21,343 bases of DNA from positions 558,001 through 579,343 of the forward strand of contig OZ237773.1 of the NCBI GenBank assembly GCA_965178125.1, given 5' to 3'. Under the pieces are notes generated by a model. It did no database searches and had not been told where the DNA came from. It saw only the letters and a program-made list of their open reading frames with translations. Positions 2 through 21,343 of the stretch are shown here, piece by piece. Within the stretch, counting starts at the first letter, position 1; every line of letters starts with the position of its first letter. Made by a program: the position numbers and the translations under genes. The stretch is from Bilabrum cf. latius. Its lineage: Eukaryota.

Positions 2-1741
2 CGAAGCCAGGCACGCCCTCGCACCCAAGGCCTCATCCTCCTGCCTTCTGGCAGCGTGCCCCACTTCACTTCCCACCGCCTCGCTATTCGTTCCCCCCGG
101 AGCACTTGCCCCGGCACTCTTTTCCCCCTCTGCCCCCGTCTCTCTATGTCTACCCCAGCCCTGTCTCTCCCCTGCCAGCACACCCCGGGCCTCTGCCCTG
201 GCTTGCCGAGCCTCCCGCATCCCACCCACGACGAATCGCTCCACCACCTGCCGCCCCGCCGCCAGCACCATGGGGGCAGTGAGCAGCAGGTCCAGGCACA
301 GGAGGGCTCGCACGACCTGCAGGACCCAGCCGCTGCTGAGTGCGTCCAGCACGTTGGCAGGCGTGTTCAGCCCAAACAGCATGGCTGCAGCCAAGCCAAA
401 TGCTACGTTGCTTGCTGTGACGATCCCAAATCCGATGCCTAGGGATCGAGCTGCTGCCGGTGCGCTGCCTTGCTCGGCTAGGATGGGCAGAGTCACGATG
501 TGAATGGCGAACAGGAACGCGATCTGTCCTATGGCCCGGGGCAGGCCGCCGGGCTTCAGGTGCGGTAGCGCACCCCACGACGCCATCGAGATGCCTTCGA
601 CAGTCGACCCATACGCCCCCGCCACCACAACCGCGACAGCCCCCCCGAGCACCGCCACATTGCCCAGCGTTGATGTCCAAGCCAACCAGTGGAAAGACTG
701 AATCTGCGCCAGCCCCAGCACCAGAGGTGCGGTAGCCAGGGCGGCCATCTGCACCGACAGCGGTCGGCTGGCCCCGCTGTCTCTCCCCGCGCATGCGATA
801 TCTGGCAGGGTGGAGGCAATGAAGTCGATGTAGACAGCGCACACACCGATCGAGGTCAGCAGCAGCCCGAAGTAGAGCCCAACCTCCGCGAAATTAGGGC
901 ACTGTGAACCTGCTGAGTCAATGTGCTAGCCAGCAGCACTCATATCGGACCCACCCATGTCCCCAACCCTCTCCTGTCCGTGACCATCCTGTCCATGCCC
1001 ATGCCCCTGGATGCCCTCCAGGACAGCCAGTGTCACTCGCACATGGACCGGCTGCACCAGCACGTCCTCGCAGCCCAGAGGGGACCCGTCCCCACCACTG
1101 CCAGCAGATGGAGCAGGCCGACTGGCTTGGTAGGACGGCGCACCGGGCGACCCATCCATCATCGGGGCCTGGCCCCGCGCCCTTGCAGTGGCAGAGGGCC
1201 CGGCCTGCGGTGTGGGTGGGACGTACCGGGGCGAGGGCGGGGGCGCCTGCTCCCCTTTCATAGCGCCCTAAACCACCGTGCTCTCGTCATGATTCTGTTC
1301 CCTTTCAGGCTGGTCTCGCCCTGGGCGTTCGCTCCCATCATGCCCTGCGGCTTCCAAGGCGCCGAGCTGCACAGGCTGTCTCGGCGGTGGCTGCAAGTCA
1401 CGAGCCCGCCACGAGCAAGCTATCCTGCCTAGCTCTGGAAGCGTTAGCCTAGTCATGCTTGTTCGGGGTAAAGCTGGGTTGCCAGTCGAATGTACGGTCC
1501 AGTAAAAGGCCAGGTCGCACAAGGTTGCCTCTGCGTCGGCCAATAGCCACATGGTGTATGCAGAAAGGACGCCAAGACAAAGTGTTGCTGCCATACCCCC
1601 GGCCAACCCGGCAATCAAAAAAGCTGCTGGCAGCGAAAACGACCCTGCGCCCACCGCACATTTTATAATATTTAAGATCGCAGCCGTTGTGCCAAGCTAG
1701 GCTGGGCTTGTAGCTGCGGCACTGGTACTGGCTTCAGCCAT
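2..1741 (-). CDS. Amino acid transporter (Aa_trans / AAAP, SLC36/38-like); 3' end runs off the window; 3 in-frame TAG
   Basis: One frame from ATG 1739-1741: MAEASTSAAATSPA*LGTTAAILNIIKCAVGAGSFSLPAAF... (TM1 motif N..K..VGAG..SLP), then GVCAVYIDFIASTL, LAWTSTLGNVAVL and IGQIAFLFAIHIVTLPI. In-frame TAG at 1697-1699, 1268-1270 and 926-928; no TAA/TGA in frame. Confidence 0.9.
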
Positions 1742-2088: not shown

Positions 2089-4188
2089 TCAGTGCCTTCG
2101 CGGTAGGATCCGCTCCTGCGCACCCGCCCATGATTCGCCGGACAGCCGTGCGGCCAGCAGCTGCACCACATGGACCGTCGTCAGCGGCCTCCGTTTTGAG
2201 GCTGTCCGTGGTGCAGCGCTGCCCGAGGCACCATCCCCTCGCGCCTCTCCTCCATCTTGAGCCCCTCGCGCCTCTCCTCCATCTTGAGCCCCTCGCGCCT
2301 CTCCTCCATCTTGAGCCCCTCGCGCCTCTCCTCCATCTTGAGCCCCTCGCACCTCCCCGGCAGCAGTCCCGGCATCCCCTCCATCCAGCGGCAATCGAGC
2401 GGTCAGGAGACCAAGCGCCTGTGCCCTCCGGAGCGCTGCTCCCGGGTATCTGTTCCTGTCGACCAGCCCGCCGATGATCAGCACGTCGCAAGGGCCTGTC
2501 TCCAGGGGGACTCCTTCCTCCACTCGAGAGTCCAGTGCTGCAGAGGCTTCGGCAGGCCCCGCACCTGCCTGTCTGCCAGATGGCTCCCCTGCCCCAGGCA
2601 CGGCCCCGCCCACATCCAGCTCGCGATCTCCTTCCGCCACGAGGTACACCACCTTGGGCTGACCGGCACAGAGAGCGCACCTGCCTCGAGCCGCGCACCT
2701 GTGTCGGGCGCACCCCACACGAGGAGGCCACGGCCGCTGGCTTCCCTCGGCTAGTGCGAGCAGCTCCTCTCTCCCCAGGGCGAGCCCTTGCTCAGACATT
2801 GTCTGGGCAAGGGACAAACGGTCCGATATCGATGTGCAGCGCTGACTTGTTGCTACGGATCCACTGGTGGATCCTGCACTGCTGCACGACACCACCGACT
2901 CATCACCGGCCTAACCTGCACTGCTCGTCGCCCCTCTCCCAAGAAGCAGCCGCGCCGGATGCATCGTGGGAAGAGGCAGCGCTGGCTCCCATGGCAGTCC
3001 CCCAGGTGTACCGCCACCTTCTCGTCCCTGCATCCTGCCCAGCAGCCCCTCCAACGGCTCCTCTGTGAGCATCACGGGCCAGGCCTGCCCCGCGCGGTGC
3101 CTCTCCATGCGGGCCAGCCCCGCTGCAGATAGTCCGCACACCACTATCCTCCCAGAGACAGGGGCTCGCATGAGGGCCTGGATACAACGCACGATCTGCT
3201 GCGACAAAGAGCGCTGCTCGGCTGGCTTCATCATCACCTCCCACTCAAAGCTCGACGCTGGCTCGGTGGGAGCACTATCTGGTCCTGCCGCTGCTGCACT
3301 ATCTGGTCCAATCGATGTTGCACTGCTATCGCTATCCATGCCGCGCAAGTGGCTGCCAGTACGGGCTCGTTTAGCCGCAGGCTCGCTTGCTGCTTCTTTC
3401 TGCACTCCACATGCATCCGAAGCATCCAGCGCACAGTGACCGGAGCGTGGAGCACCTGTTGGCTCTGGTGCCAGTGCTGCTTGGAGAGGCATAGACTGGG
3501 GCGGCCTGCCGCAGTCAATGACTATCGTCGGGCCGCACAGCATGCGCAAGAACATCCTGTACCTCCTGCTCGTCTTCTTGCAGTTGCTAGCCGAGCCTGC
3601 TGCAGCGCCACCAGCAGCAGCTGCCCTCGCCCGCTTCGACAATAGACTGGGGTCTCGGGCAGCAGCGAGTGCGGCTCTCGCTTTACCATCCCCAAGAATC
3701 CAGTCTCTCATTCGAACCATCCTGAGCCGAAGAACCTCTGCCAGAGCCCTGCGCATCCTTCGTTTCGCTGGTGCGCTTTCGCTTCCAGGCAAGTCAAAAA
3801 CACCAGGGCAGTCGATACAAAGTTGGTTCACAGGGTCAGAGGCAGCAAATGCTGCCTTGATTTCGTCTTGGCGAACAGCAGGCAGTGGCCAATTCGAGTT
3901 CCAAAGCGGTACAGCAGGAACCTACACGGGGAATCGCGGAAGCCAGAACGAGACCTATATGGTCTTCACAGCTGTTGCGTTGCGATCGGAACCTGATCGT
4001 AGCTATTCGGCATCTGTTGACTTTAATAGCAGAGAACAGGATGAGTGAGCAACATGTGGGGTCCACTCAGAATCAGGACCGTCGAACACTTTGCGATGCA
4101 CCACCGAAGAACTCTTGCAGACAGGGGCCCCAGAGCAGTGATCAACAGATATGGCTAGCCCTGCTTCCCAATGCAACTTGTCAGCCAT
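2089..4188 (-). CDS. TRM10: tRNA m1G9/m1A9 methyltransferase, TRM10 family (SPOUT), ~699 aa; 4 in-frame TAG
   Basis: The N-half (TIVIDCG...MMKPAEQRSLSQQIVRC) and C-half (VVYLVAE, LIIGGLVDRNR, TARLPL, LTTVHVVQLL, W...ILPRR) share a frame across TAG 2911-2913. Further TAG at 3922, 3955 and 4003. Stop TGA at 2089-2091. The start ATG at 4186-4188 (MADKLHW) is inferred. Confidence 0.88.
2235..2355. repeat. 27-bp coding tandem repeat, 4 full copies plus a partial (encodes RGAQDGGEA in TRM10)
   Basis: Unit cccctcgcgcctctcctccatcttgag at 2235, 2262, 2289 and 2316, partial at 2343. Confidence 0.95.
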
Positions 4189-4356
4189 TATGTATCGGTA
4201 CTGTGTCCTGGAAAAAGGTGCCTCATGGTGGTGAAATCCCCAGCAGGGTCTTGCCCCGAGAAAACTACAGTGCGATGCACTCAAACGTGGTGCATTGCAT
4301 TGGACTGCTACGCCCGCGGGCTGTCTAAATCGAAGCCCACTCCTTGGTAGCAACGC
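4189..4356. promoter_or_regulatory. Putative bidirectional promoter between divergent TRM10 and ARL13-like genes (168 bp)
   Basis: Gap between the inferred ATGs at 4188 (-) and 4357 (+); no specific motif identified. Confidence 0.4.
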
Positions 4357-5262
4357 ATGGGCGCTGTGTGCTGCGTCTAGTGTTTGGGATGCTGCTGTGG
4401 AGGGGCGAGTGAGTCTCAAGTATCGGGTAGAACAGCGTTCGGCCAGCAGGATGCTATTCTAGCGTAGAGTTCCAGAAACTAGGCTGCCGTCGCCAACATT
4501 GCGATGATTGGGTTAGACAGTGCAGGCAAATCAACAGTTTTGTCTATCATGAGAGAGTTGTCTCGGTCCAAGCCTGCACTACAAGTAGCTGAGGTGCAAG
4601 CTCCCAGGACCGTTGGTCCCACGATACCTGCGGATGCCGCCCAAAGAGTGCGTGAACAGACTCCAACTGTGGGTTTGGCTCCCCCAGTCAGTTTTGCACT
4701 CGATTTTAATTCGACCGCCAGGCAAGGCGTCAGATCCCACCCTAGGTCGCTGGTCATTCGCGATGTGGGCGGCGCGTCTCGGTACAGGTCGGCGTGGCCA
4801 AGCGCGATTCGGCAGTCTCATGCCGTTGTATTCGTGCTTGACTCTTCTCCATCTCAAGATAAGTCCGAATCGGATAGGCCTTTCATCAGGGGTCGGCGGC
4901 TCAATCGCCAGGTGGAAGTGAAGCAGGTGCTCCGCGAGGTGCTCGACCTGGACGAGTGCGTGGGCAAGCCCATCCTGTTCTTGGCCAACAAACAGGACCG
5001 GGATGGGGCCTTCAGCAGTGGGTAGGTGAGGCTGGCCATCGGACTCACGGATGGGGCCGCAGTCCTGCACCGACACGTGTGTCAGCCGTGCACCGCCCTG
5101 CCCATCGAGTTGAAGAGCACAGGGGCAGGGGCGGAGGCAGGGGCAAGTACCGTGGATCCCAGGCTGGTTGAAGGCATCCGGTGGCTGGCTCGAGTTGTGG
5201 ACGGTGACTGGCCCATCCTGCACCCGCGAGTATGCAGAGAGTCTGCAAAAGCAGCTACATGA
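4357..5262 (+). CDS. ARL13: ARF-like small GTPase, ARL13-like, 301 aa; 4 in-frame TAG
   Basis: MGAVCCV*CLGCCC N-terminus; G1 GLDSAGKST; switch II DVGGA without the catalytic Gln (ARL13 has DLGGG); G4 GKPILFLANKQD; C-terminal CQPCTA...VDPRLVEGIRWLARVVDGDWPILHPRV, collinear with ARL13B as I recall it. TAG at 4378, 4465, 4480 and 5023; stop TGA 5260-5262. Confidence 0.82.
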
Positions 5263-5384: not shown

Positions 5385-5499
5385 TTCTAGCCAGCTTGAT
5401 CACCAGTTTCTAGCCAGCTTGTTCACCAGTTTCTAGCCAGCTTGATCACCAGTTTCTAGCCAGCTTGATCACCAGTTTCTAGCCAGCTTGATCACCAGT
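5385..5499. repeat. 23-bp tandem minisatellite, 5 copies, between convergent 3' ends
   Basis: Unit ttctagccagcttgatcaccagt; copy 2 has one a>t change; no spacers. Confidence 0.97.
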
Positions 5500-5600: not shown

Positions 5601-7115
5601 TCACTGCAGCATGGAAACCACCTGGTCATACCGGGGCAGCGTGCCGCGCTCGCCCTCGATGGCAGCATACGCCACCTTGCCCTTGACGGCGGCACCCGCC
5701 ACCCGCGCCACGTCCTCGTCGGTCACCTCAGCGATGGCCTTGTACAGGGCCGAGGGCTCCGCCGACTCGCCCGTCAGCGCCACGCTCTGCGCGATGTCCG
5801 CCCGCCTGCCCGCGCGGGAGTCGAGCTGCTGCGCGAGCTCCATGCGGTAGGCCGCCTTGCCGCGTGCCACGTCCCTCCTGTCGATCCCCCCGCTGGCCAC
5901 CGCCTTGAGTGCGTCACAAGCCGACTGCAGGGCGCCCGCCGCGGCCCCGTTCTGGGCAGTCACCGACACGCCGAAGAGTCCCGAGTCGCTGTGCGAGAAG
6001 GAGTAGGCGCTGCCAGAGGCCCCCTCTCCCAGCTTACCGGCCAAGAAGCCTGGGCTCTGTCCCCTGGCCCGGCGCTGGGTCTGGCCCATGATGGCCCGAA
6101 GCACGCCAAGCGCATGCACGTCCTTGAACCCCATGGAGGGGGCCTCCAGCCCGATGGCGAAGTGCGAGTGCGCCGAGTCCTCGCGCGTGCGGTCCTCGCC
6201 ACCAGTGAAGGGGGAGGCCTCGAGGGGCTTGGCCTCGGCGGCGGGAATGTTCTGGAAGAGCATGTCCGCGAGATCTGCCATTGGCTCGTGGGGCACGTTG
6301 TTGGCCACCACAACCACGTTGGAGCCGACCATGGACGCCCTCAAGTAGTCCGCGACCGCCTGCTCCCCCACCGCATCGATCTGTCTGTCCGAGGGCACTA
6401 TTGCCCTGCCCAGAGGTGCCTTGGGGCCGTAGGCTGCCGCATGGATGGCCTCCTCGATGGCAACGGCGGGCTGGACCCGCAGGTCCGCTGCCCGTCCCTT
6501 GATGAAGGCCTCCTTCATCTCCTCCACATCCCAGGAGAGCAGCGCGGGCTGCAGCACGGCCTCGGCCAGCGTGTCGGCCATGAGCGGGAGCTCGTCTCGG
6601 ATCGCCTCGATCGAGTAAGAGATGCCCTCCCGGCCTGCGGATGCAGCCACGGAGCCGCCGAAGTTCTCCACATCCCGGTACAACTTGTATGCAGACCTGC
6701 GGTGCGTGCTTCCGAATGCCATGCCCTCTGCCACGAATGCGGTGCCAGCCGCGGCCTCGGCGCGAACGCCGCCCCTTACAAACACCGACAAGCTCGCCCC
6801 ATGCCCGCGCGAATCCAGTGACACAATCTGCACTCCATTAGCCAAGCGAGTGGATTGGACTGGTGTAGGCGGCAGCGCGGCACCGGTGGGCTCAGGAACT
6901 CCCGGGAAGGCCTCGTTCAGGGGGTTCTGATCAGGCAAGTCGAAGAAGAGAGCTGCAAACGGGTTCGACGCAGCAGTGGTGGCACGTGCCTGCAAAGCAA
7001 CCTCATTGCTTTGGAACCTCCTTCCAACCGTGCGGGCCTGCGAGAGCGCTCGGTGCGGCAGTGAGTGGAATCGATGAACCTGTTTGCCGAAAGAGGCTAC
7101 CGACAAACAACGCAT
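5601..7115 (-). CDS. Mitochondrial M16 family non-catalytic subunit (MPP-alpha / cytochrome bc1 core protein 2-like), ~504 aa; no in-frame TAG
   Basis: Arg/Ser-rich presequence MRCLSVASFGK...GRRFQS; STRLANGVQIVSLD, VFVRGGVRAE, GTAFVAEGMAFGST (HxxEH lost), ASAGREGISY, FSHSDSGLFGV, C-terminal LPRYDQV. ATG 7113-7115; stop TGA 5601-5603. Confidence 0.9.
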   Translation of the reverse strand: MRCLSVASFGKQVHRFHSLPHRALSQARTVGRRFQSNEVALQARATTAASNPFAALFFDLPDQNPLNEAFPGVPEPTGAALPPTPVQSTRLANGVQIVSLDSRGHGASLSVFVRGGVRAEAAAGTAFVAEGMAFGSTHRRSAYKLYRDVENFGGSVAASAGREGISYSIEAIRDELPLMADTLAEAVLQPALLSWDVEEMKEAFIKGRAADLRVQPAVAIEEAIHAAAYGPKAPLGRAIVPSDRQIDAVGEQAVADYLRASMVGSNVVVVANNVPHEPMADLADMLFQNIPAAEAKPLEASPFTGGEDRTREDSAHSHFAIGLEAPSMGFKDVHALGVLRAIMGQTQRRARGQSPGFLAGKLGEGASGSAYSFSHSDSGLFGVSVTAQNGAAAGALQSACDALKAVASGGIDRRDVARGKAAYRMELAQQLDSRAGRRADIAQSVALTGESAEPSALYKAIAEVTDEDVARVAGAAVKGKVAYAAIEGERGTLPRYDQVVSMLQ

Positions 7116-7549
7116 GGAGACAAAGTACCCTCCCGCCACGGCATTCTGAAATGCAGGGACTTAAAACACAAATATAAAATGCATGCCCACGGTGAGCCTG
7201 TATAACGTGATCCAGGGATGTGCACAGGCGAATGCCTCAGCGGTGGACCCCAACACTGCGAGCCAAATCATATCTCCAAGGCTCATCAAGCTAAATGTCG
7301 GGACTTACAGAAAGAGCACGAGCACTACGCAAACATGCTCGAACGCGATGCATCACAACCACCGCAGTCGATACGGAAAGACCGAGATTGAGCCACGATG
7401 CGACAAAGCGAAACAATGTAACGCGTACTTCAAATAATCATATTCTGATATTCCCGGCGATTGCCGTGTTACCGTCCAAACTAAAGACAAGCCGAAATTT
7501 TTGGAGCTGGATCATATTCATATTCTAAGTTTTAACCTGCTGTGCTGCG

Positions 7550-10186
7550 ATGAGCGAAAGCAAGGCACCATTGGTCGCCGGTGCGATTGCAGTTGAAACC
7601 GCTGATCAAGCCCGCCGTATTCGCGGCGCTGCCGAGCTTGCGCGCGAAAAGGCAACTCGATTAAAAGCTCTCAATGATCGTGCGTAGAAAAATATATCGT
7701 ATTTGAACAAAAGTCTGTCATCGCTGGCCGCAGACCTGGGAATCGACTGGGACCCGGACGCAGACCCTTCGGCCCAAGATTTGGCCCAAAAAGTCAGCAT
7801 GCTATCTAGTAGGGTCGGCTTAGAAAAATCCAAGCTCATGACAGAAGTCGATGAGCGAGTTCACGCAGATGAGCTGGAGGCTAGGCTCGTATACGGAAGC
7901 GACAGTGATGGAGCCAGCGCAATCGCATCGCAGGGAATGACTAGGGAGCAGTCAAGGGAAGCGAGAGCGGCTAGAAGACTGAAGGCATTCCAGCATAGTA
8001 TTGCTCATGCTCGGACTCAGCTAGAAGCATCGCAATCTCGGCTGGATCAAATCGAGGCCGGGCTCGAAGTCGCTCGCAGGAAGGCCAAGCAGGAAGCCGA
8101 GGCCACGAGTGAATCCAGATAGAGACTGATGCGGCTGCAGGACGACGTCAAGCAGCGGTAGCGAGAGTACGATGCAGCGCGACAGTCTCTCTCGCTGCCG
8201 CTCAAGCGTATCGCCGCCACTCTGGCCAAGACCTCGAGGGCCCTGGGGCACTCGGAGGGGCTCCGGCAGTCGCTTGCTAAGGGCGGGGGCGGGCCTAGCG
8301 GGGCATAGGGTCAGCCACTTGCCGGCATCCCAGCCGACAAGCTGTCCGCCTCGGACCGCACCCGGCTGCAGCGCATGGTGGCAGACCTCGAGTTCCTCAT
8401 GGAGCCCAGCCCGCAGGGGGGCGGGCGCGGGCACACGGCGGCCTCGCTGGCAACCGAGGTGCGGCAGAGGCTGCAGGCGCTAGAGAGGGAACTGAGTGAG
8501 GACAAGAGCGGGTTGGCTGAGGAGGGCCGGGAGCCGGGCCTCCGTCTGCTGCTCACGGGCTTCATGCATCTCCAGCACCAGCAGCCGATGCCCTGGTTTG
8601 AGTCCAAAGGGAGCCTATTCTAGCGGCCCCCGGGAAGCAGGGAGGGTCTATCCGCACTGGCTGACTCGTTTTTGGAAGGTACCGGAGTGTCCGACGCGGG
8701 GAATGCTCGCGTGGCCCAAGTGGCGGCTGCAGTGCGCACGCTTGCCCCGGGGGCGCACGGTTTCACTCTGCTCATGGGCCCAGCGGAGGTGGCAGAGAGG
8801 GAGGTGGAAGCTAAGGACCTGGAGGCCAGGGAAAGGGAGGACAGAATTCGAGAGGCGCGGGAGAAGCGGAGATTGGAGATAGAGAAGCAACGGCAAGAGG
8901 AGGCCAAGGCAACGGCAGAGCAGGAACTGAATCAAGCACCTGCCATCTAGGCTGCCACACCTGCGTTGGCGCTGCGTGCCCCGACCACTGGCAAGCAGCC
9001 TGCCGTTCCATCCATGACGGATGGTGATCTGAGGCACTGGAGGGGTGGGCGGCTGGTGGGCAGACACACGGGGACACAGGCACGACAGGCTCTGCTCGGC
9101 CTCGTGTGGCGCGGACTGCCCGCGGACGTGGTGGTGCGGGCCCTCTTCGCGATGGTGTCCAGCGAGGTACCAGCAGGGGCGCTGCAGGCCAACGGTAGCA
9201 TAGTGGCGAGAGACATTCCACCGCGCTGGGGCAGGGTGCTGCTCGCTGCGGGAGCACCCACCGATGGATAGGCGAACGACAGCCTGGGGAACGCAGTGGT
9301 GGCGGTGGCGGCACACAGGGATCCTGCAGGGTTTGGCTCCAGCGGGCTAGCGCCCCCGCGACACTGGACGGGCCCGGCTGCCCAGCTGCATGAGCTGCCT
9401 GCCAGTGCCCGCCTCACTCTGAGCGATCTCGAGCTGGCGGTGCTGCTGGCTTCCAACCGGGACCGGCTGGACGCGCTGCTGGACAGAGTGGACGAGCTGG
9501 CCTGTGCCCCAGTATAGGGGCAAGGAGGCAGTGGTAGTAGCAGTGGTAGGCCCGCTGGATTGGAGGCCATGTGCAGGATAGCCCCCGATGTGCGTCGGTG
9601 CGTGCTGGAGGCAGAGCAGGGAGGGCCAGATGCCATGTATGCCCGCGTGTTCCATTCCATGCAGCTCGTGGCGCGAGCAGGGCATGCAGCGGCAGGGCAT
9701 AGGTCCAGCGAGCCGGTGTCTATGTCTAGTAGTGGACGCGCGGACAGGCTGTCGCTGGTGCATCTGGCGCGGAGTGTGCCCGGGGCGGTGGCTTTCTTAC
9801 TCACTGAGCCAGGGCTGGTGCGAGCAGCGGTACGGAAACCGAGGGAGCACATTGGCGGCAGTGGCAGCGGCGGTGGGGCGACCAAGAGTACACCTCAGCT
9901 GCTGCTGCTGGAAAGCGGGTGGCGAGACTTCCTGGCATCGCAGCTGCAGGACACGGGGCCCAAGCGGCGCGCCTCTGCTGCCAAACACCCCCCTGTATCG
10001 TAGGATGCATCGGATGACTGGTTCTTTGGAATGTTCCGATGCGGGTCGGCCCGTGGCGGCAGGACTTCGACCGACGACAACTGGGGCGTGGAGGATCCCG
10101 CCCCCATCGACCAAAAAGAGAACCTCCCTAGTTGGCAGCGGCAGATGATGTTTCTGTCGACCCTTGCAAGATTGTTGGGTTCCTGA
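7550..10186 (+). CDS. Hypothetical protein, 878 aa, with coiled-coil segments; 9 in-frame TAG
   Basis: ATG 7550. Six listed ORFs (7703, 8375, 8672, 8966, 9296, 9560) are in one frame, separated only by TAG (7685, 8120, 8159, 8306, 8621, 8948, 9269, 9515, 10001). First TGA is at 10184-10186. E/R/K/Q-rich helical stretches. Confidence 0.8.
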
Positions 10187-10410
10187 TGGCGAAAAGTGAA
10201 CAAGAACAGTACTGCAGACTCTAACCGAATTGTGGTCACTGCACCACCCCGCTGGGGGTAAGTGCAAATTTCGAAAAGATGAAGCTCAAACGCAAACAGT
10301 AGATCTACGCACTCGAGAGCGACGGCCTGCTAGTACAACATCGCTCAGGCTAGTAATATAGTTTGGTCTAAGCCATTCTGTGAACTGTGAATCTGGCTGC
10401 TTGCCCCCAT
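9329..10410 (+). repeat. Direct repeat copy 1 (3' part of the 7550-10186 gene plus downstream sequence)
   Basis: 9368-9910 matches 14362-14904 with no differences I could see; 10100-~10410 matches 14905-~15212 with scattered substitutions and indels; short match 9329-9347 vs 14336-14354. Confidence 0.93.
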
Positions 10411-10452
10411 TCTCGGTGGTCTCATTCAAACATCAATACCGAGGTATGAAAG

Positions 10453-13400
10453 ATGCGGGTTTCCCGCAGACGGGCGTTCGTATTTCAGCGAGTCGTTCGA
10501 TCACTTTGGGGTAGTTTCAACAGTTTGCTTGGATTAAACGAGCTTAACATAAAACAAGTGAGATGGCTATGCTCATGGTCTCGTATACATCGTGTACCAC
10601 TGCATTTACGGTTCCATACTATTAGCGCACCCCCTTCGATTAAGTTCCTATTCTATTCGCAGGCTTTTGCCACCGGTACTAGAACCAACACGATATCTGT
10701 CCCGCTTTTGATGCTTGCGCGACAGGTAGTTAAGCCATACACTACAGTAAGGGGCTGCTCGACTACGTAGTACTCCGAATGGAGGGAGCCAGCGACTTGG
10801 ATTGAGACATTTTGTGATTCACTTGTAGTTCACGATATTGAACGAATGGCGCGGATCGTAGATGGCACATTGGGAGAATTGGTCAGTCGAGATCCCAGCG
10901 TACATGCTTGTCGGGACGTGCAAGCTCAGTGCTCTTTCCTCAAGCGCTTGGAGATGGCTGCCAGCGACGCTCCGATCCTCGTCAAGCACCTGGATCAAGG
11001 CAAGTAGTTCTCCGTGGAGAAAGTGATGGATTTGATAAATCGAAGAACGGAGGATCGACCAAGGAGCTCATTAATTGAGTGCAGCGGGCCCTGGTTCAAG
11101 ATGGCCGCGCGGCTGTGCGAGATTGACGTTGGTCTTCTCAACGCGGTCCTGGACACATCGCATCACGCGTACATTTTGTCCGACGAGTACCGAAATGGTA
11201 TGCAAAAACTACGCACTGTCATTAGTAGCGCCCTAGACAAGGTGCCAATGGCCTAGGAGAGGGCCGAGCAGGATGCACGAAAGTACATCGCCAAAGGCCG
11301 CCCACCGAAGGACTACCTCAGGGACGCGCGATTCTTGGTTGTGCCTGACTGCAGCTGGATTCCAAGACTCAGTACGCGTGCCAAAGATGAGGGTTTTGAC
11401 ATTAAGGGCGATTTCGATGCACCCGACGTGGCGACTGCCGTGAGGAAGCGTATGGCCTTTGCCGCAAATTCTGAGGGCGGCTCATTGGTAGCAGCAGTCC
11501 GTGATTCGCTTCTGCTAATAGGCGAGGCGTCAGTCTATGTGAAAAGCCGCCAAAGACTTGTGGATGCGCCAATTCTTCCCATCGTGGACGCAAGGTGTGG
11601 GTCTCAACGCGAAGGTTGGTTGGACCTGTTTATCATGGAGGCATTCGCGACCACATCTTTCGGCTCATCTGTTATGCGTGGCGGGGTGGTTACTGGTTTT
11701 CTAGGGTACGGGAAATCTGAGCTGATGCGGAATGTGATCTTTGGCAAGGCACTCATGCGTTGGGCACTTGCACTAGAGAGTGAGCCTTCCGAAGATTCGC
11801 ACCGGACGACCCATGTCGGTATCTACGTCAAGGACCCAGTAGGAAAGATCGGTGACTTGAGGTATGCCAGCCCTGTCGCATTGATTGCTGCCGGCCTCGC
11901 CAAGATCGGTCTCATAGATGCAAGTTCTCCGCCAGGCTGGGCAAAGCCAGACCAGCTGGAACCAACTGCCATGGGAGACTGGCTGTCGGAGCAAAGTATC
12001 CACGTTGCGCTGACCATTGATGAAGCCCAAAAGGTGCAGATGCCAGCCGAAGGGTCCGAGGACTGGCACTACCGCAAAATGGTATCCGAGTTCTGGGCGA
12101 CTTTAGCCGACATGCTGAATATAGAGTAGCGTAGGCCCACGGTCTTCTTGACGGGCTCGTAGAAGAGCTTAGCCAAGGAAGTGTATGGGCCAGTCCATGG
12201 ACGCCAGGTGCTCCAGGACGACAAATTTCTCGTCCGCGCGATGCCCAATGCATATTCGGAGCCGGAGCTGCATCTAATGCTACTTCGGCAGCAGTCAAGG
12301 TCAAGTATTAGGCATAAGCAATCTAGCGATGTTTCTCTTGGACCGCTAGAAGCACCGTTTGAATCCCGTAAGGTCACTGCCGCCGATGCAGTTCTAGCCT
12401 TAGCATACTACTTGCGCAAGCGAGATGACATCAAGATCGGGAAGTGGTGGCATCGGGTTGGGTACTTCGTGCAGCCCAGCTTGGACCATGTGGTGCGCTC
12501 AATATAGCCTGGTTCATAGACCCAGGGTGCACAGGATACTGAGGGTCTTCCAACTGGCAGAATCACTGTGGAAAGTGCCCGAATGCACCTGCAGGACCGC
12601 CGAGTGCTTCGTGCAGCAGAATCTGCCCGCGAACGGGTCCTTAGAGCGTTTTTGCTGAACGGGGTGCTTGCAAGGAGTCTGGGGGCAGTTGGGGGGACGA
12701 GCGTCTAGTTTAGAATGTACGTTAGGGCGATGATGGATCGCAAGTCGCTTTTCAGCAGGTTTGGAGTAGCTCTCGTGCGAGCTTCTCTCAATGGTGGCAA
12801 CGTCGGCGAGCAGGCATTGCTCAACCTCGATGACCCTTTTCAGGCCATGCCACTTGCAACACTGTCCACCATCAAGGATAACCTGGATGAAGTCAATAAA
12901 GAAGTGCTGCCGCCAGATTAGGTCGCTTCAGATCGTCATGAGTATGAAGACAAGCTTGATGGTTTGTTGCGGAAGTGGCATGATGACCAATGGGTGATGT
13001 ACCATTCTCCTGAGGAACAAAAGTTCAACCAAATACGAACGCAGCGTGGTTCCGGGAACGTGCAATTCCCTAACGTGGCATACGCAAGAGTAGCCCTGCA
13101 GGTTGATCTCACTCGAGACATCTTCCTCACCATTCGGGAGCAACAGGCACTCGACGATTCGACGGGTGACTTCGGCAAGGATTATGAGATGGCAATCGCC
13201 GAGTCTTTGCGGCGCAACTTCAGGTCCAAGGTACTTGGCAAGGGCCGTTTGCCTTCTTTGCCCAGAGACGTGTATTCTTCGAGTCCTGGGGTGCTAGAGC
13301 TGTCGTGGGATCGGGATAGCCCGTCTTCGCCCGATCAAGTGCTTCGATTGGGCTATCTTGGAGAAACCGGACCCAAACATAAGCAGTACCGGCAGGGGGT

Positions 13401-14082
13401 TGCAAACAGACCATTTTCAGCTTTTGGTCAAATATTCAAGGAGTTTCCAGACCATTTCGGCGCTGATCTCGCTGTTGTGCTGCGCAGCAACTCTCATCTT
13501 GAGAACCAAGTCAAGTATCACGTCGTCCGGATTTAGGTCAAGGCCGCCTCCTCGAAAAAAGATGAAGTTGGCGCAAGCGATCTGGACAAGATGCTGTGCC
13601 AGGATATTCAGGCCGATGTCCATCGAAGGTACTGTAGTTTGCTAGGCGAGGAGCAGACCTCTGGCAACGTGGTTATACACCGACTCCTCATCACTACTAA
13701 GCCTGTAAATGACCCTATGCAAAGTCTGGCCAGCCATTCGGAGACGAGAAACCCCCTATCCGCGGTGGGTGCGAGAAAGCAGCGTCTCGGCAGGTAGCCC
13801 AAGCCAATTTCGCGGCAAGAGAACATGGACGTGATCTACGGGAAAGACCTATCGGACTTGCTATTTGCCGATGCTCGGCTGTATCTGGCCAGGAGGCGAC
13901 TACTGCTGAGCAAGTCAGAGCAGGAAGCACGTGAAGCCTAGGTGGTGCTGTAGAACGTCCTCAATGAGGTTGTGGGCGAGCTAAGCCTGGGACTTGCAAG
14001 CAGGGAGGCCGGCAGGTTTGATTCAACCAGCCTTGCTGAAGCTTATTGGGAGCAGCACCGGTTCGCCAGCGATATTTCGTGA
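10453..14082 (+). CDS. Large P-loop NTPase + C-terminal PD-(D/E)xK (REase-fold) nuclease protein, Crinkler/RHS-type effector-like; ~1120-1210 aa; 13 in-frame TAG
   Basis: Seven listed ORFs in one frame joined by TAG (10768, 11005, 11254, 12127, 12160, 12505, 12517, 12706, 12919, 13534, 13795, 13939, 13951); stop TGA 14080-14082. Walker A VVTGFLGYGKS, Walker B VALTIDEAQ, sensor-like VFLTGS; nuclease-like YEMAIAESL...FGADLAVV...VVRI*VK...RLLITTK. The start is ATG 10453 or ATG 10711 (uncertain). Confidence 0.78.
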
Positions 14083-14335: not shown

Positions 14336-15212
14336 GGGTTCGGCTCCAGCGGGCCTGCTGAACGGGCCCGGCTGCCCAGCTGCATGAGCTGCCTGCCAGT
14401 GCCCGCCTCACTCTGAGCGATCTCGAGCTGGCGGTGCTGCTGGCTTCCAACCGGGACCGGCTGGACGCGCTGCTGGACAGAGTGGACGAGCTGGCCTGTG
14501 CCCCAGTATAGGGGCAAGGAGGCAGTGGTAGTAGCAGTGGTAGGCCCGCTGGATTGGAGGCCATGTGCAGGATAGCCCCCGATGTGCGTCGGTGCGTGCT
14601 GGAGGCAGAGCAGGGAGGGCCAGATGCCATGTATGCCCGCGTGTTCCATTCCATGCAGCTCGTGGCGCGAGCAGGGCATGCAGCGGCAGGGCATAGGTCC
14701 AGCGAGCCGGTGTCTATGTCTAGTAGTGGACGCGCGGACAGGCTGTCGCTGGTGCATCTGGCGCGGAGTGTGCCCGGGGCGGTGGCTTTCTTACTCACTG
14801 AGCCAGGGCTGGTGCGAGCAGCGGTACGGAAACCGAGGGAGCACATTGGCGGCAGTGGCAGCGGCGGTGGGGCGACCAAGAGTACACCTCAGCTGCTGCT
14901 GCTGGCCCCCATCGACCCAAAAGAGAACCTCTCTAGTTGGCAGCGGCAAATGATGTTTCTGCCGACCCTTGCAAGATTGTTGGGTTCCTGATGGCGAAAA
15001 GTGAACAAGAACAGTACTGCAGACTCTAACCGAATTGTGGTACTGCACCCCGGGGGTGGAAGTGCAAATTTCGAAAAGATGAAGCTCAAACGCAAACAGT
15101 AGATCTACGCACTCGAGAGCGACGGCCTGCTAGTACAACATCGCATAGGCTAGTAACAAAGCTTGTTCTTAGCCATTCTGTGAACTGTGAATCTGGCTGC
15201 TTGCCCTCCATT
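14336..15212 (+). repeat. Direct repeat copy 2
   Basis: Second copy of 9329-10410, lacking the 189 bp equivalent to 9911-10099. Confidence 0.93.
14362..14991 (+). pseudogene. 5'-truncated duplicate of the C-terminal part of the 7550-10186 gene
   Basis: Same frame and same C-terminus (...WQRQMMFLPTLARLLGS-TGA). Frame is closed upstream by TGA 14359-14361; in-frame 63-codon deletion; first in-frame ATG at 14563. Confidence 0.7.
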
Positions 15213-15251
15213 TCGGGTAATAGCTTGGTCTCTGATCCAGATTCTAGAATC

Positions 15252-16901
15252 ATGATGAGATAGGTTGCAAAGAGTACGGCCCGGGCTCTTCGCCGACGGG
15301 GGCATACGGGCTCGATTGCATCACCTACATGCAGTGCCACTGTGTCGTCTCAGTCTGCAGTCACTGGGTCCAGTACTGATGAAGAAGGTGGTAAGAGCCC
15401 TGCAGGACATTCTGCGAGCACCAGTGGAAAAGCAGGTGCAGCTGCGGTCAGTGTCGCGGACCATGCAACTGGTACCGGTTCAAAGAGTGGAAGCAACAGC
15501 AGTACACCTACCTAGTCCCGGGCTGCAGCTGCGATGGTATGGCTCATTGAAGCAACTCATAGCTCTCTCGCACGCGATAGGGTTGATGGAAGCTTAGCAT
15601 TAAGGAGGCTCCAGCCATACTACGACATCGCGCTACGACCGTTAGGGACCATATTGAAGAGGAACGCGGTCGCTGTCGGGATTGATAACGACACCGCAGA
15701 TTTTCTGTACAGATGCGGAGCGCAAGGTGTCAAGCCCCCGCAAGTGGTACCCGATGCAAGTTGCTGTTCAAAGTTGGTGTATCGGGCACAGAGCTGCATC
15801 GAGGGGGTATCCCAATGGTCCCGGTAGGTTGGACGATACCTGGCGAGTCGGTCGAGCCGAGCGCTGGAATCCATCATGTCTGCGACGGATGCGAATGCGC
15901 TGCTGGGCAGGGGCCGGATGCTGGTGCTCACCACCGGACAGGCCTGGCGCCTGCTGTAGGTGGCGCGGGCTAGGCAGCGCGCGGCCATCGAGGCATAGCA
16001 ACAGTCAGGTCTAGAGCGTGCAGACGGGCCCTAGGCAGTTGGCAGTGGCTCGCCTCCCGCACCAGCACCAGCAACAGCACAAGCACCAGCAACAGCACCA
16101 GCAACAGCACCAGCAACAGCCGCCAAGCCAGACACTACCCCAGCCGGAGCCAGCCAAACCTACAACTTATCAAACGCTGGGAGCGCCGCTGCCACCTCCC
16201 CGTAGCTGCGGCCTAATGCTGCTGCCTCTCTAGACCTGGACGAGGACAGTTGGGCCACCCCTGTGTCCCCATGGAGGGGGGCCTCTCTTCTGGACATCGG
16301 GGCAGGGGACGGGAGCGTCACGCGGAGGCTGCTGGACCTCGGGTTCGAACCGTCGAGGAGCAGTGCCACGGAGGTGTCTCGGCCCATGGTGGGGCGGCTG
16401 CGGTCCCTAGGGGTGCGCGCTGTTGAGTGTGCGATGCCTGGGCCAGACGTGTTCCCCCGAGGTGGCTGCTTCGACGTGGTGTCCGTGCTAAATCTGCTCG
16501 ACAGGTGCGATGACCCGAAGGGGGTGCTGTAGGCCGCCAAGCGACTCGTCAGAAAGACCTCTACTACTGGCAGTGGCAGTGGCAGTAGGCCGCCCACTGG
16601 CACGGGGAGCGGTCTCTTGCTGCTGGCCGTGGTGCTCCCCTTCCGGCCATTCGTGGAGGACGGAGTGGCAAGGCGAGTGCCTGCCAGGCCGCTAGCAGTG
16701 GGTCGGGCCAATGATCCTAGGCTCTCTTAGGAAGCCATGGCCACTGAATTCGAGGCCAACGTTCTAGCACCGGCGGGTCTACGGGCTCTCGTGTACTCCC
16801 GCGTCCCGTACCTGTGCGAGGGGGACGGACTGGCCGACTTCTATACGCTGCCAGATACCCTATTTGTATGCGATGTTGTGGCACAAGAGCTCGATGAGTG
16901 A
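15252..16901 (+). CDS. METTL9: METTL9/DREV-like protein-histidine methyltransferase, ~549 aa; 9 in-frame TAG
   Basis: MSATDANALLGRGRMLVLTTGQ, LLDIGAGDGSVT, ATEVSRPM, FDVVSVLNLLDRCDDP, LLAVVLPFRPFVE and SRVPYLCEGD...FYTLPDTLFV all match METTL9 motifs and lie in one frame across TAG (15261, 15513, 15825, 15957, 15996, 16032, 16203, 16530, 16728). Stop TGA 16899-16901. The start may instead be ATG 15534. Confidence 0.9.
16059..16120. repeat. Low-complexity 12-bp-period repeat (gcaccagcaaca) encoding APAT repeats in the METTL9 insertion
   Basis: gcaccagcaccagcaacagcacaagcaccagcaacagcaccagcaacagcaccagcaacagc. Confidence 0.8.
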
Positions 16902-17086
16902 GAGATTTGGGTATACACGCAGTCTAGCCCGGCCCTGGTGGACTGGACTACAGCTCTGCAGTGCCATGATGGCGTGACCTCGTCACAATGACACAAGATG
17001 AAGAAAATTGTCGAACCGTTTTGCACCATAGCACTAAGAACTTGTCATTTGATTGCTGCTGTCTTTCGTTTGTGACTCTAGGGAAG

Positions 17087-19513
17087 ATGCGTGCGATGGC
17101 CGCTGGGTGTTGTAGGCTGCTGGGTAGAGCCCTGGTTTGGCAGCGAATACCGTCAACCGGTCTACCAGCTCTAGCACGCATCAGGACCAGCAGAAGGTAT
17201 TTGTGTTCTGCAAGGCTTGACGGGGCACGAATAGAAATTGATAAAGCTGAGAGCATTTTGTCGCACGTCGAAGCAAGAGCTCAAATAGAGGCCAGTAGCG
17301 GCCACTGGCATGAAAGTCTTATGCAGTGTAGAAGCGTGATCGCATCCTTGAGGCGCCAATCTAGTGAATCCGCTGCACTGTCTCCTTCTGACTACGCAAG
17401 GGTAGCTTTGATGGACGTGCGGCTGCTCTTAGCTCGACAAGAGCTGGATGCCGCGTTAGGGCAGGCACCAGTCGCCGTTTTGCACCTGAAGTCTGTCCTC
17501 GAGGACGACAAGATCGATTCAAATGCCGACGTCGATGCACTCATTCGTGCGGCAGAGAGCACCGGGCGCCGGCTTCGAGCAGAGACGGCGGCTATGTATG
17601 GCAAGCCGGCCCTCGATTCAATTGACGAGAGTGTTGCAGACCAGCTCTCATCGGCAGCACTTGGAATCGAGAGACTGGCGAGAAGGATTCGATTCCGTGG
17701 GCTTGATGCGACTGGAAACAAGCAGGATCAGAACGGCATGGAGCTACCGATGGGCTGGGAAGGTGGCGCTGGGCCAAGGATAGCGGAATTCCTGGAGCAG
17801 CACGGCACGAGAGGGGTGCGGGCAGTTGCCACAAATCAGCTCGCCTGGTCTGAACGCAGGCATGACGCCGCGGGGGCAATGCGCTGGATGCGGCGATTGG
17901 ACCGTATGGGCGTGCGCCCCTCGGAGCGGGACTGCGTGCATGCCGTCCGTGCCGTGCTGCTGCAGGGGGACATCAGGGGCGCGTTGTGGATGCTATCGAG
18001 GTATCGCGCGTGCATGGCCCCGCGGACAACTCGACTGCACGCCATCGGTATCTTGGACGCAGCCTGTTCTCTCTTGTCCTGCGCAGGCACAGCTGGGACG
18101 AGTGGCCCAGAGCTCGCCCGGCTTGCAGGGACCGTGGCTGCCTGCCAGCTGGCTCTGACGCGCGAGTTCGGGGGCATCGTCCCGGGTCGTTTAGCTCGTG
18201 TGGTAGCCGATTGTCAGGATCTGTTACGTGGCAAGCATGTGCGCGGGTTTGGACTGACACAGGACGCAAGCAAGAGCGATAGCAGCCGACGTGAGAATGC
18301 GAACAGGGATAGCTTGCGGGAGAGTTATATCAATGGAAGCTCGCTGGATGACAGCAGCGGCACCAGCCAGCTGGAAGGAGGGAATGCAGGAAGGGGTGCA
18401 GGGGGTCAGTCGGATACAGTCATAGGTGGCGCTCATCTCTAGCATGGAATCCTTAAGCCACAGCCCAACATCGCAAAGAGTCGTGCTGGTGGTACCATGA
18501 ATCGACATCGCGGCGTTGTCCCCACAGTGACGGTTCGCCCGGGGTCTGCGTCTGGGAGTGCGTGGCCACTAGCCGCTGGCCTTTGGCAGGTAGCTGCGGA
18601 TGCTACACAAACACAATGCAGGGGCACTGTAGGCCCAGCCCTGGTCCACGTGGAGTGCGAGGCTCACTCTGTCCAACTGGCCCGCGCTCAGGTGCTCAAC
18701 GCCTCTGCTATGGCCGCGAGGATCTTGGGGCGGAAGCTGCGGGGGATAGAGAGCAGCCCGCATAGCCAGAGCAAGCAGGGTGTAGAGCAACGGAAAGCAC
18801 TGTCGACAGCTGGTGAGCGCGTGCTGTGCCTGTCTCCGCTCGATGCTTTGATCCCTCCAGCCCATGCGACAAAGAAGAGATCAGCTGGTGGAGTCGTAAG
18901 GGCGGCTGTGGGGTGGGTGCCGGTGGCTAGCCTAGTGCCAGCTCTTGAAACAGGAGATGATACGCAAAGCCTGCCGCATCCACTACAGCGGTAGCTCGCT
19001 CAGTTCTATCGGCTGATCGTCGCCAGCCAGGCCTCCCAACAGGGACTCATGCGAGATGGAGGACCAGCCAGCGGGGGCGCTTCCGAGCTGCAGCCCCTGA
19101 TTACGCCTGGGAAAAGCAGAAAACCTGCCAAATACGTCGCTGTGGTACCAGGGTGTTTCTCAAAGCCCGGGCAGCGCTCATCTGGAATCGCTGGGTATCT
19201 CCCAGTTAGGGCGGGAGGGGTCGGCAGCTGGACCGAGATGCGGGCAGCAGGTGTTGAGTCCCAGGCGGAGGCGTGGTACGGGTTGACCACGGTGAGTGCG
19301 ATTGCCAAGCAGAGATACACATCAAGCGATGGGGACGCTTTCGCATTGCCAAGTGGCCAGGTGGTGGTGCCCATGCCTCTGGGGCAAGACCACCCCGTCG
19401 TGATGTACCCGTCCTTCTCGAAGCTGCCGCAAGTGTATACTGGTGGGGCCAAGTGGGGCAAGCAGGGTGTTGAGATGCACGGGTTGCGCATGTTTGTCCA
19501 TGCGTTTGTCTAA
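17087..19513 (+). CDS. Putative mitochondrion-targeted helical-repeat (PPR-like) protein, ~808 aa; 2 in-frame TAG; ends in TAA
   Basis: ORFs 16988, 18497 and 19049 share a frame joined by TAG 18440 and 18992; stop TAA 19511-19513. Presequence-like MRAMAAGCCRLLGRALV...RTSRRYLCS; PPR-like AMRWMRRLDRMGVRPSERDCVHAVRAVLLQGDIRGALWML. Upstream ATG 16988 is also in frame. Confidence 0.65.
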
Positions 19514-19564
19514 CAAATGCCGATTATCAAGCAATTCGGTCGGATCTACTCACATTTACGGGGT

Positions 19565-19579
19565 CTAACCCTAACCCTA
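19565..19579 (-). repeat. Short interstitial telomere-like tract in inverted orientation (ctaaccctaacccta)
   Basis: 2.5 units of the CCCTAA repeat, opposite in orientation to the terminal array. Confidence 0.6.
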
Positions 19580-19800
19580 TATCCGGATAGTCACACTACA
19601 GGCAGATCTGTGTAGGATCCCGTGCATTGCGCCACAGCCCGTTCAGGCAGAAAACGCTTCAACATAGCAAATTCCTGCAGAGTGTGCAGCCGGTCGCGAC
19701 GATGAGAAGCAGAGACAGCTAGAAGAAGTGATTGACAGCGGGAATTGGGTTTAATATTTTAGTTGCAGCTACACGTTGGATTGCAAGAGGGTCGTGTTGA

Positions 19801-20339
19801 AAGAAGAAGATCAAAAAATACACGCAACTTCATCGCGGGACAACCAAAACTAGGCTGGGTGTCAAGGGCCGGTGGGAGGTGGTGGAGGGCACCTTCTCGT
19901 ACTTCTGGTCCTGCAGCTCTACGCACCAGGGCTACGACTCGGACGTGGGCGCTGCCCCGCACTCCCGGTTCGACGATGTGGCAGCGTGGGTGACGCACGC
20001 GGGCCCGGCTCGGTGCTGCGGGATGGTGCAGCTGCTGCTGGGGCTGGACGAGGACGGGGGGCTGACGAGGCTGCCCTGGGTGGATGAAGACCCCGTGGTA
20101 GGGTGGAGGCTCGAGCCGGGGCCCAAAGCGGTGGCAGACACGCAGGTGATGGTGAATGGGGAGGCGGTCGGGCATGGCTCGAGGCTAGACCGTTGCCATC
20201 GGTGACTCGTAACGGCTTTTTGAGCACTTGGGCCGTGCTGACTCAAGATTTCTTCACGGCACCGAAGGGATCACCGGCCTTCGCGAGGCTGGTGTGGAAG
20301 GAAGCACACGTCGTATGTGGAGGCGTGAAGCCCGCTTGA
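19801..20339 (+). pseudogene. Possible degenerate gene fragment
   Basis: GC-rich coding-like frame 19801-20205, preceded by TGA and with no early ATG, overlapping a second frame that ends at 20339; family not recognised. Confidence 0.25.
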
Positions 20340-20390
20340 TCTGCCCCCTTTTCACCTTGTTATATCCTTACACCGGTCTGCTGATTATAG

Positions 20391-20664
20391 CCCCATCCAG
20401 CGCCCGCACACCACACCTACTTGCTCCAGCACAGGCACCATGGCCCCCATCCAGCGCCCTCACACCACACCTACTTGCTCCAGCACAGGCACCATGGCCC
20501 CATCCAGCGCCCGCACACCACACCTACTTGCCCCAGCACAGGCACCATGGCCCCATCCAGCGCCCTCACACCACACCTACTTGCTCCAGCACAGGCACCA
20601 TGGCCCCATCCAGCGCCCTCACACCACACCTACTTGCTCCAGCACAGGCACCATGGCCCCATCC
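20391..20664. repeat. Subtelomeric 53-bp tandem repeat, 5 copies plus an 8-bp partial
   Basis: Unit ccccatccagcgccc(g/t)cacaccacacctacttgctccagcacaggcaccatgg at 20391 (54 bp), 20445, 20498, 20551 and 20604; partial at 20657-20664. Confidence 0.97.
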
Positions 20665-21343
20665 TTAGGGTTAGGGTTAGGGTTAGGGTTAGGGTTAGGG
20701 TTAGGGTTAGGGTTAGGGTTAGGGTTAGGGTTAGGGTTAGGGTTAGGGTTAGGGTTAGGGTTAGGGTTAGGGTTAGGGTTAGGGTTAGGGTTAGGGTTAG
20801 GGTTAGGGTTAGGGTTAGGGTTAGGGTTAGGGTTAGGGTTAGGGTTAGGGTTAGGGTTAGGGTTAGGGTTAGGGTTAGGGTTAGGGTTAGGGTTAGGGTT
20901 AGGGTTAGGGTTAGGGTTAGGGTTAGGGTTAGGGTTAGGGTTAGGGTTAGGGTTAGGGTTAGGGTTAGGGTTAGGGTTAGGGTTAGGGTTAGGGTTAGGG
21001 TTAGGGTTAGGGTTAGGGTTAGGGTTAGGGTTAGGGTTAGGGTTAGGGTTAGGGTTAGGGTTAGGGTTAGGGTTAGGGTTAGGGTTAGGGTTAGGGTTAG
21101 GGTTAGGGTTAGGGTTAGGGTTAGGGTTAGGGTTAGGGTTAGGGTTAGGGTTAGGGTTAGGGTTAGGGTTAGGGTTAGGGTTAGGGTTAGGGTTAGGGTT
21201 AGGGTTAGGGTTAGGGTTAGGGTTAGGGTTAGGGTTAGGGTTAGGGTTAGGGTTAGGGTTAGGGTTAGGGTTAGGGTTAGGGTTAGGGTTAGGGTTAGGG
21301 TTAGGGTTAGGGTTAGGGTTAGGGTTAGGGTTAGGGTTAGGGT
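20665..21343 (+). repeat. Telomere, (TTAGGG)n, ~113 perfect units
   Basis: Uninterrupted TTAGGG to the end of the window, with the G-rich strand running toward the end. Confidence 0.99.

Follow-up and report, generated by a model that had tools for sequence, protein, structure and literature searches.

TAG as a probable glutamine codon, with TAA kept out of coding frames, in genes at a GC-rich nuclear chromosome end

Nuclear genetic codes in which UAG and UAA differ in meaning are rare, and the locus described here raises the question of whether it belongs to an organism that uses one. The window, by which we mean the whole stretch of 21,343 nucleotides that was analysed, is split into many short open reading frames (ORFs) under the standard code. 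When TAG is read as a sense codon, eight long ORFs span most of it, and NCBI table 15 gives the same result. The reading that we favour, with a probability of roughly 0.8, is a nuclear code in which UAG means glutamine while UAA and UGA are stops, that is the pattern of NCBI table 15. With every TAG read through, the genes of the window are as follows.

2..1741, minus strand: g1, an amino-acid transporter (Pfam Aa_trans) with 3 in-frame TAG, its 3' end lying outside the window
2089..4419, minus strand: g2, a protein with a weak tRNA m1G methyltransferase-like C-terminal part, 4 in-frame TAG, ending in TGA
4357..5262, plus strand: g3, an ARL13-like small GTPase starting with MGAVCC, 4 in-frame TAG, ending in TGA
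5601..7139, minus strand: g4, an M16 peptidase (mitochondrial processing peptidase-like), 0 TAG, ending in TGA
7550..10186, plus strand: g5, a coiled-coil-rich protein, 9 in-frame TAG, ending in TGA
10453..14082, plus strand: g6, an ORF of 1209 codons with a weak AAA_22 match, 13 in-frame TAG, ending in TGA
15252..16901, plus strand: g7, a histidine methyltransferase of the DREV/METTL9 type, 9 in-frame TAG, ending in TGA
17087..19513, plus strand: g8, a protein without known family, in-frame TAG at 18440 and 18992, ending in TAA

The starts of g3 (ATG 4357) and g7 (ATG 15252) were moved to fit transcript contigs. For g8 the start is likely ATG 17087 rather than the first ATG of the ORF at 16988, since the transcript contig begins at 17016, after the latter. 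The methyltransferase match of g2 scores 24.3 bits, under the Pfam cut-off of 27.3. The best species-named match of g4 is the bicosoecid Cafeteria roenbergensis, at 42%, the only one of the 10 M16 matches to carry a species name. For g8, a Pfam search returned no family even at E up to 5, none of 8000 candidates scored was a homologue of similar length, and the AlphaFold model of residues 514-841 has a mean pLDDT of 33.8 with no usable fold; what was found is limited to three short fragments of ORFs from a relative, with 83-87% identity.

As to the nature of the chromosome, the window closes with a telomere.

20665..21343, plus strand: telomere, 113 copies of TTAGGG, occupying the last 679 bases up to the end of the window

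The (TTAGGG)113 array marks the window as the end of a eukaryotic nuclear chromosome. Before it lies a 53-bp subtelomeric repeat in 5.2 copies, and the GC content per kilobase of the window is 51-67%. Contigs from public runs cover the window as gene-sized pieces with uncovered gaps between them. Just two introns, both of the GT..AG type, were seen: one of 105 nt at 10558-10662, in frame within g6, which is skipped in contigs of two runs, and one on the minus strand at 7037-7307, in the leader of g4, which is skipped in a third run. The confirmed splice donors are GTGAGA and GTAAGT. For the runs X6, X7 and X8 the RNA status is only guessed by label, X6 being labelled 'probably DNA', and we infer that they are RNA from the spliced joint and from the contrast of depth between gene bins. 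Bins over different genes lie up to about 100-fold apart, the summed contig depth per bin ranging from about 3 to about 500 across the window, a quantity by which genes cannot be ranked. Taken together, the telomere, the 53-bp repeats, the spliced GT..AG introns and the transcript-like contigs are best explained by a nuclear chromosome end of a GC-rich, intron-poor and probably flagellated eukaryote. One truncated gene copy is present in the window, a tRNA scan of the window gave 0 tRNA genes, and eRF1 is not among the genes of the window.

That TAG is an ordinary sense codon in expressed, conserved genes of the window is well supported. Of the 44 TAG, 38 fall within contig pieces (X6, X7 or X8) free of letter differences, among them all 9 in g5, where these pieces have 0 other letters; over 20 kb only 2 letter differences were listed, neither at a TAG. 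The base following TAG (G 21, C 12, A 6, T 5) is distributed like that following CAG (G 66, C 52, A 24, T 18). Homology also extends beyond the last TAG in g2 (weakly), g3, g7 and g8. In the case of g3, the alignment with the structure PDB 4m9q_A (E 1.6e-12) reaches residue 296 of 301, beyond the TAG at residue 222.

These observations bear on whether there is any code change at all. It would be extremely improbable, in our judgement, that the TAGs are standard stops which lie in pseudogenes or unrecognised introns, or which are dealt with by programmed readthrough or RNA editing. Decaying genes are often abundant near telomeres, and the truncated copy mentioned above would fit such a setting; however, 44 in-frame TAG against 0 TAA and 0 TGA are unlike decay, and contigs with a spliced GT..AG joint retain the TAGs unchanged. 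Neither of the two introns takes out a TAG. Editing of TAG at the RNA level is rejected, no letter change being listed at any TAG in the contigs. Moreover, the ORFs of relatives in the database are chopped into fragments in a like manner and yet are 83-98% identical in protein, and such fragmentation is expected if the relatives share the code and their genes were called with the standard one.

For the amino acid, the close relatives give the most direct indication. At the TAG sites that they cover, P0001 (94% identity to g7) has glutamine at 2 of 2 and P0131 (86% identity to g8) at 1 of 1. Another ORF fragment of a relative, P0133, stops exactly at a CAG of the window (Gln 284). Farther away the sites become variable: P0002, a relative with 72% identity, has leucine at one of two TAG sites and glutamine at the second, DREV homologues at a greater distance vary, and the ARL13 structures have glutamate at the aligned TAG site of g3. 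A metagenome query with P0002 gave 30 loci of only 30-53% identity, P0002's own contig being absent, and was left unused. Judging from the alignments, UAG most likely means glutamine, the residue present in 3 of 3 cases among relatives of 86-94% identity, which is a small sample.

If TAG is sense, the question is whether TAA shares its fate. The eight maximal ORFs obtained with TAG as glutamine hold 5773 codons, with 46 TAG, 160 CAG and 73 CAA against 0 TAA and 0 TGA; in the refined models, the eight genes hold about 5,600 codons with 44 in-frame TAG, spread over 7 of the 8 genes, and again 0 TAA and 0 TGA. The zero for TAA is partly circular, since the ORFs are delimited by TAA and TGA, and hence a control free of this circularity was taken from the same ORFs out of frame. 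There the two shifted sense frames (+1 and +2) contain 19 and 28 TAA, and the three antisense frames 21, 11 and 21. The in-frame number of TAG (46) is near its off-frame counts (69 and 60) in the maximal ORFs. Between genes TAA is found 52 times in 3411 nt on both strands, and beyond three of the TGA stops an in-frame TAA follows at codons +6, +7 and +25. CAA makes up 31% of CAR codons (73/233). Applying the ratio of TAG to CAG to the CAA codons predicts about 21 TAA in frame, and the Poisson probability of none is about 8e-10. For sense TAA the 95% upper bound is about 0.5 per 1000 codons; TAG, with 44 in about 5,600, reaches about 7.8 per 1000. Since TAA has no in-frame occurrence while being common off frame and between genes, it is specifically excluded from the coding frames of the window, and TAG is not.

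The preliminary description of this DNA had proposed that UAA and UAG are decoupled, from 44 in-frame TAG against no TAA. The counts hold, and the proposal is well supported within the window: the numbers are the same with refined starts, the off-frame control agrees, TAG is sense by the contigs, the glutamine sites, the homology and the base that comes next, and none of about 5,600 codons is TAA.

The same counts weigh on the reading in which UAA and UAG both mean glutamine (NCBI table 6), with TAA merely rare owing to GC-richness and g8 running on to the TGA at 19703-19705. This is by far the commoner reassignment, according to PMC5304391, but here it meets the 0 in about 5,600 codons where about 21 TAA were expected, and the abundance of TAA off frame. 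Reading TAA also as sense joins or fills no gene body; only gene edges lengthen, on the 5' side of g4, g5 and g7 and on the 3' side of g8. We regard this reading as very unlikely, and what else speaks for or against it is found at the end of g8.

All eight genes bear on termination except g1, which runs beyond the window. The seven complete ones end in TGA six times and in TAA once, as was already stated in the preliminary description, with the same termini, the TAA of the last gene at 19511-19513 included. The C-terminus of g4 lies within one column of the ends of 7 of 7 aligned homologues, Cafeteria roenbergensis among them, and P0001 terminates at the same residue as g7. On the strength of these shared ends in the alignments, TGA is a real stop. 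For TAA the matter turns on the following two features.

19511..19513, plus strand: the TAA closing g8, the sole TAA terminus in the window
19514..19705, plus strand: the g8 frame as it would run on with a sense TAA, 63 codons and then the TGA at 19703-19705

The protein of g8 ends in ...MHGLRMFVHAFV, after which TAA follows, and P0131 has the identical last 12 residues with the same final residue, although the part leading up to them diverges and has a 6-residue gap. This shared end suggests a true terminator, since the sense TAG sites are unshared with close relatives (3 of 3), and it tells against TAA being glutamine. It is no proof of a TAA stop, because a standard-code caller halts at TAA, TAG or TGA alike. 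A metagenome scan with the C-terminal part of g8 as query found no relative.

If both codons were glutamine, g8 would stay open for 63 codons more. The codon score of this continuation is -0.06, and 64-codon windows of g8 have a median of +0.11 with a range from -0.08 to 0.44; coding potential thus barely discriminates the continuation, whose score falls within g8's own range, and to this extent the table 6 reading is accommodated. Against it, the continuation contains a telomere-like CTAACCCTAACCCTA (19565-19579), in addition to one TAG, and its GC3 is 51%, lower than that of g8 (61%) and of the last 64 codons of g8 (72%). The 63 codons after the TAA may be non-coding. The X6 piece on g8 stops at 19482, short of the TAA by 29 nt, and 19483-19999 is without a listed piece of X6, X7 or X8, a gap that was counted neither for nor against. 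A hidden splice donor at 19483 (GTTGCG) was considered and rejected, for it is unlike the confirmed donors and the residues downstream are conserved in P0131.

Use of UAA as a terminator rests on this one terminus, in a gene with no known family, and is the weakest link of our reading. The preliminary description had attached the same caveat, a single TAA terminus on a poorly characterised gene, and it stands: g8 is still the only case and has no Pfam family.

The ends of the genes also bear on a context-dependent TAG, akin to the stop/sense codes of Condylostoma, karyorelicts and Blastocrithidia, by which a TAG ahead of the assigned TGA would be the true end of some genes, UAA and UGA being stops as well. 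Gene models that read every TAG through are blind to a TAG that also terminates. In g6 the TAG at 13939 and 13951 stand 47 and 43 codons before the TGA, and in g5 one TAG stands 61 codons before its TGA, as such a dual use would have it. In g3, g7 and g8, however, homology spans the part between the last TAG and the assigned stop, and 7 of 7 complete frames are closed by TGA or TAA, with TAG unneeded for this purpose. A dual role of TAG therefore seems quite unlikely to us, and in what follows we keep to UAG as glutamine with UAA and UGA as stops.

Several known codes can be set beside this one. In PMC11687900, UAG for glutamine with UAA as a stop, the table 15 pattern, is given for Hartmannula sinica, Trochilia petrani, Protocruzia tuzeti and Iotanema spirale, and Blepharisma itself is described as being without the table 15 code. 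Iotanema spirale belongs to Fornicata, and Hartmannula sinica and Trochilia petrani are phyllopharyngean ciliates (PMC5304391, PMC11687900). Like the window on our reading, these organisms have UAG alone reassigned, to glutamine, and UAA out of use as sense; they use UAA as a stop, of which the window has one putative case. They differ in that UAA is their dominant stop: for the two phyllopharyngeans the share of UAA among aligned C-termini is 93.5-100% (PMC11687900), whereas the window has TGA in 6 of 7 genes and TAA in 1 of 7. Further differences are the GC content of the window, 51-67%, and its telomeres, which are of the TTAGGG and not of the ciliate type.

In the rhizarian exLh UAG is leucine and in Scotinosphaera it is serine, both with UAA kept as a stop (PMC5304391 and PMC11687900). 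They differ from the window in the amino acid, its relatives showing glutamine at 3 of 3 sites and one leucine only in the relative of 72% identity. Many ciliates, hexamitin diplomonads, ulvophytes, Streblomastix and Amoeboaphelidium protococcarum, in which UAR is glutamine, likewise read a stop as glutamine, but they use both TAA and TAG inside genes, while the coding frames of the window are without TAA. Amoeboaphelidium, which is cited as having UAR as glutamine, has genomes of about 40% GC (PMC10608142, Table 1), as against 51-67% in the window, and was rejected as the source for this reason.

By analogy with Iotanema, Protocruzia and the phyllopharyngeans, the same mechanism would be expected here, namely an eRF1 that is weak on UAG and a tRNA-Gln bearing the CUA anticodon. 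That a tRNA with the CUA anticodon reads UAG but not UAA is argued for Iotanema and exLh in PMC5304391, and for phyllopharyngean ciliates in PMC11687900. Following such known codes (PMC5304391, PMC11687900), UAG in the present organism may be decoded by a tRNA-Gln(CUA), which would probably be a mutated copy of tRNA-Gln(CUG). Since the CUA anticodon cannot pair with UAA, the proposed mechanism would leave UAA free for termination. The eRF1 would no longer recognise, or recognise less well, the G at the third position of UAG while still accepting UAA and UGA, again after the codes in PMC5304391 and PMC11687900; the expected changes would lie in its N domain, around GTS, NIKS and YxCxxxF, and no tRNA with a UUA anticodon would be expected.

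Several eukaryotes are already on record with UAG alone as glutamine (PMC5304391, PMC11687900). What differs here is the setting, a GC-rich window with TGA rather than TAA as the main stop. A search of the literature outside subscription papers and supplements yielded no report of a UAG-only code for a stramenopile or a GC-rich flagellate. Tentatively, and at slightly less than even odds, we suggest an independent origin of the UAG-only glutamine code in a lineage, perhaps a heterotrophic stramenopile-like flagellate, for which no code change has been reported. If so, the case would run contrary to the usual picture, in which UAG is lost under AT pressure and UAA is fixed as the preferred stop, and the telomere-reaching assembly and the public runs would be at hand for direct work on the discrimination of UAA from UAG by eRF1 and on the suppressor tRNA.

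In a more general respect, codes of this kind indicate that eRF1 can be tuned to separate UAA from UAG and that a suppressor with the CUA anticodon can take UAG alone, and a GC-rich case with mostly UGA ends would widen the conditions under which UAG may be captured. On the practical side, gene callers with the standard code fragment the genes of this organism, as they appear in the database relatives, and its annotation needs table 15. As a minor observation, the coding region of g2 contains a tandem repeat of 27 nt at 2235-2355.

A segmental duplication links the window at 9340-10416 with 14340-15216. It places, between g6 (the weak AAA_22 match) and the DREV/METTL9-type gene g7, a copy of the 3' part of the coiled-coil-rich gene g5 together with the g6 upstream region; the copies are 100% identical over 300 nt and 92-97% identical in other parts, with a 189-nt deletion within the duplication. 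Its outcome is a truncated g5 copy, and as a result of the same event the upstream region of g7 resembles that of g6.

Two canonical introns were recognized:
10558-10662, intron of 105 nt, GTGAGA...CAG, in frame and without stops
7037-7307, intron in the leader of the M16 peptidase gene g4, GTAAGT...CAG
Since the former is in frame and stop-free, it is invisible to a reading by open reading frames. The latter is spliced out in a contig from one sequencing run but kept in a contig from another.

At window 4357-4400 the ARL13-like GTPase gene g3 starts with MGAVCCV-TAG-CLGCCCGG, so that its first TAG is already codon 8, and the Gly2 and cysteine-rich N-terminus of the predicted protein suggest lipid anchoring. 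At the other end of the genes, C follows four of the six TGA stops in this small sample (2089-2091, 5260-5262, 5601-5603 and 14080-14082), as well as the single TAA stop, that of g8 (19511-19513). A stop codon followed by C is the leakiest stop context in yeast and mammals.

Repeats lie both in and between genes, and also toward the chromosome end:
2235-2355, 27-nt coding tandem repeat in g2 (weakly tRNA m1G methyltransferase-like)
5385-5499, 23-nt tandem repeat in the spacer that separates g3 from g4, whose 3' ends face each other
16059-16120, (GCACCA)10 inside g7
19565-19579, inverted telomere-like CTAACCCTAACCCTA, right after the g8 stop and about 1.1 kb inward of the telomere
20390-20664, 53-bp repeat in 5.2 copies, immediately adjoining the telomere
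Contigs break at the first two of these, and the very high depth over (GCACCA)10 is drawn from many unrelated contigs. For window 16000-20600, at least one third of the sampled words were matched at near identity in runs of four studies, and the matching runs bear four distinct coded organism labels (A to D).
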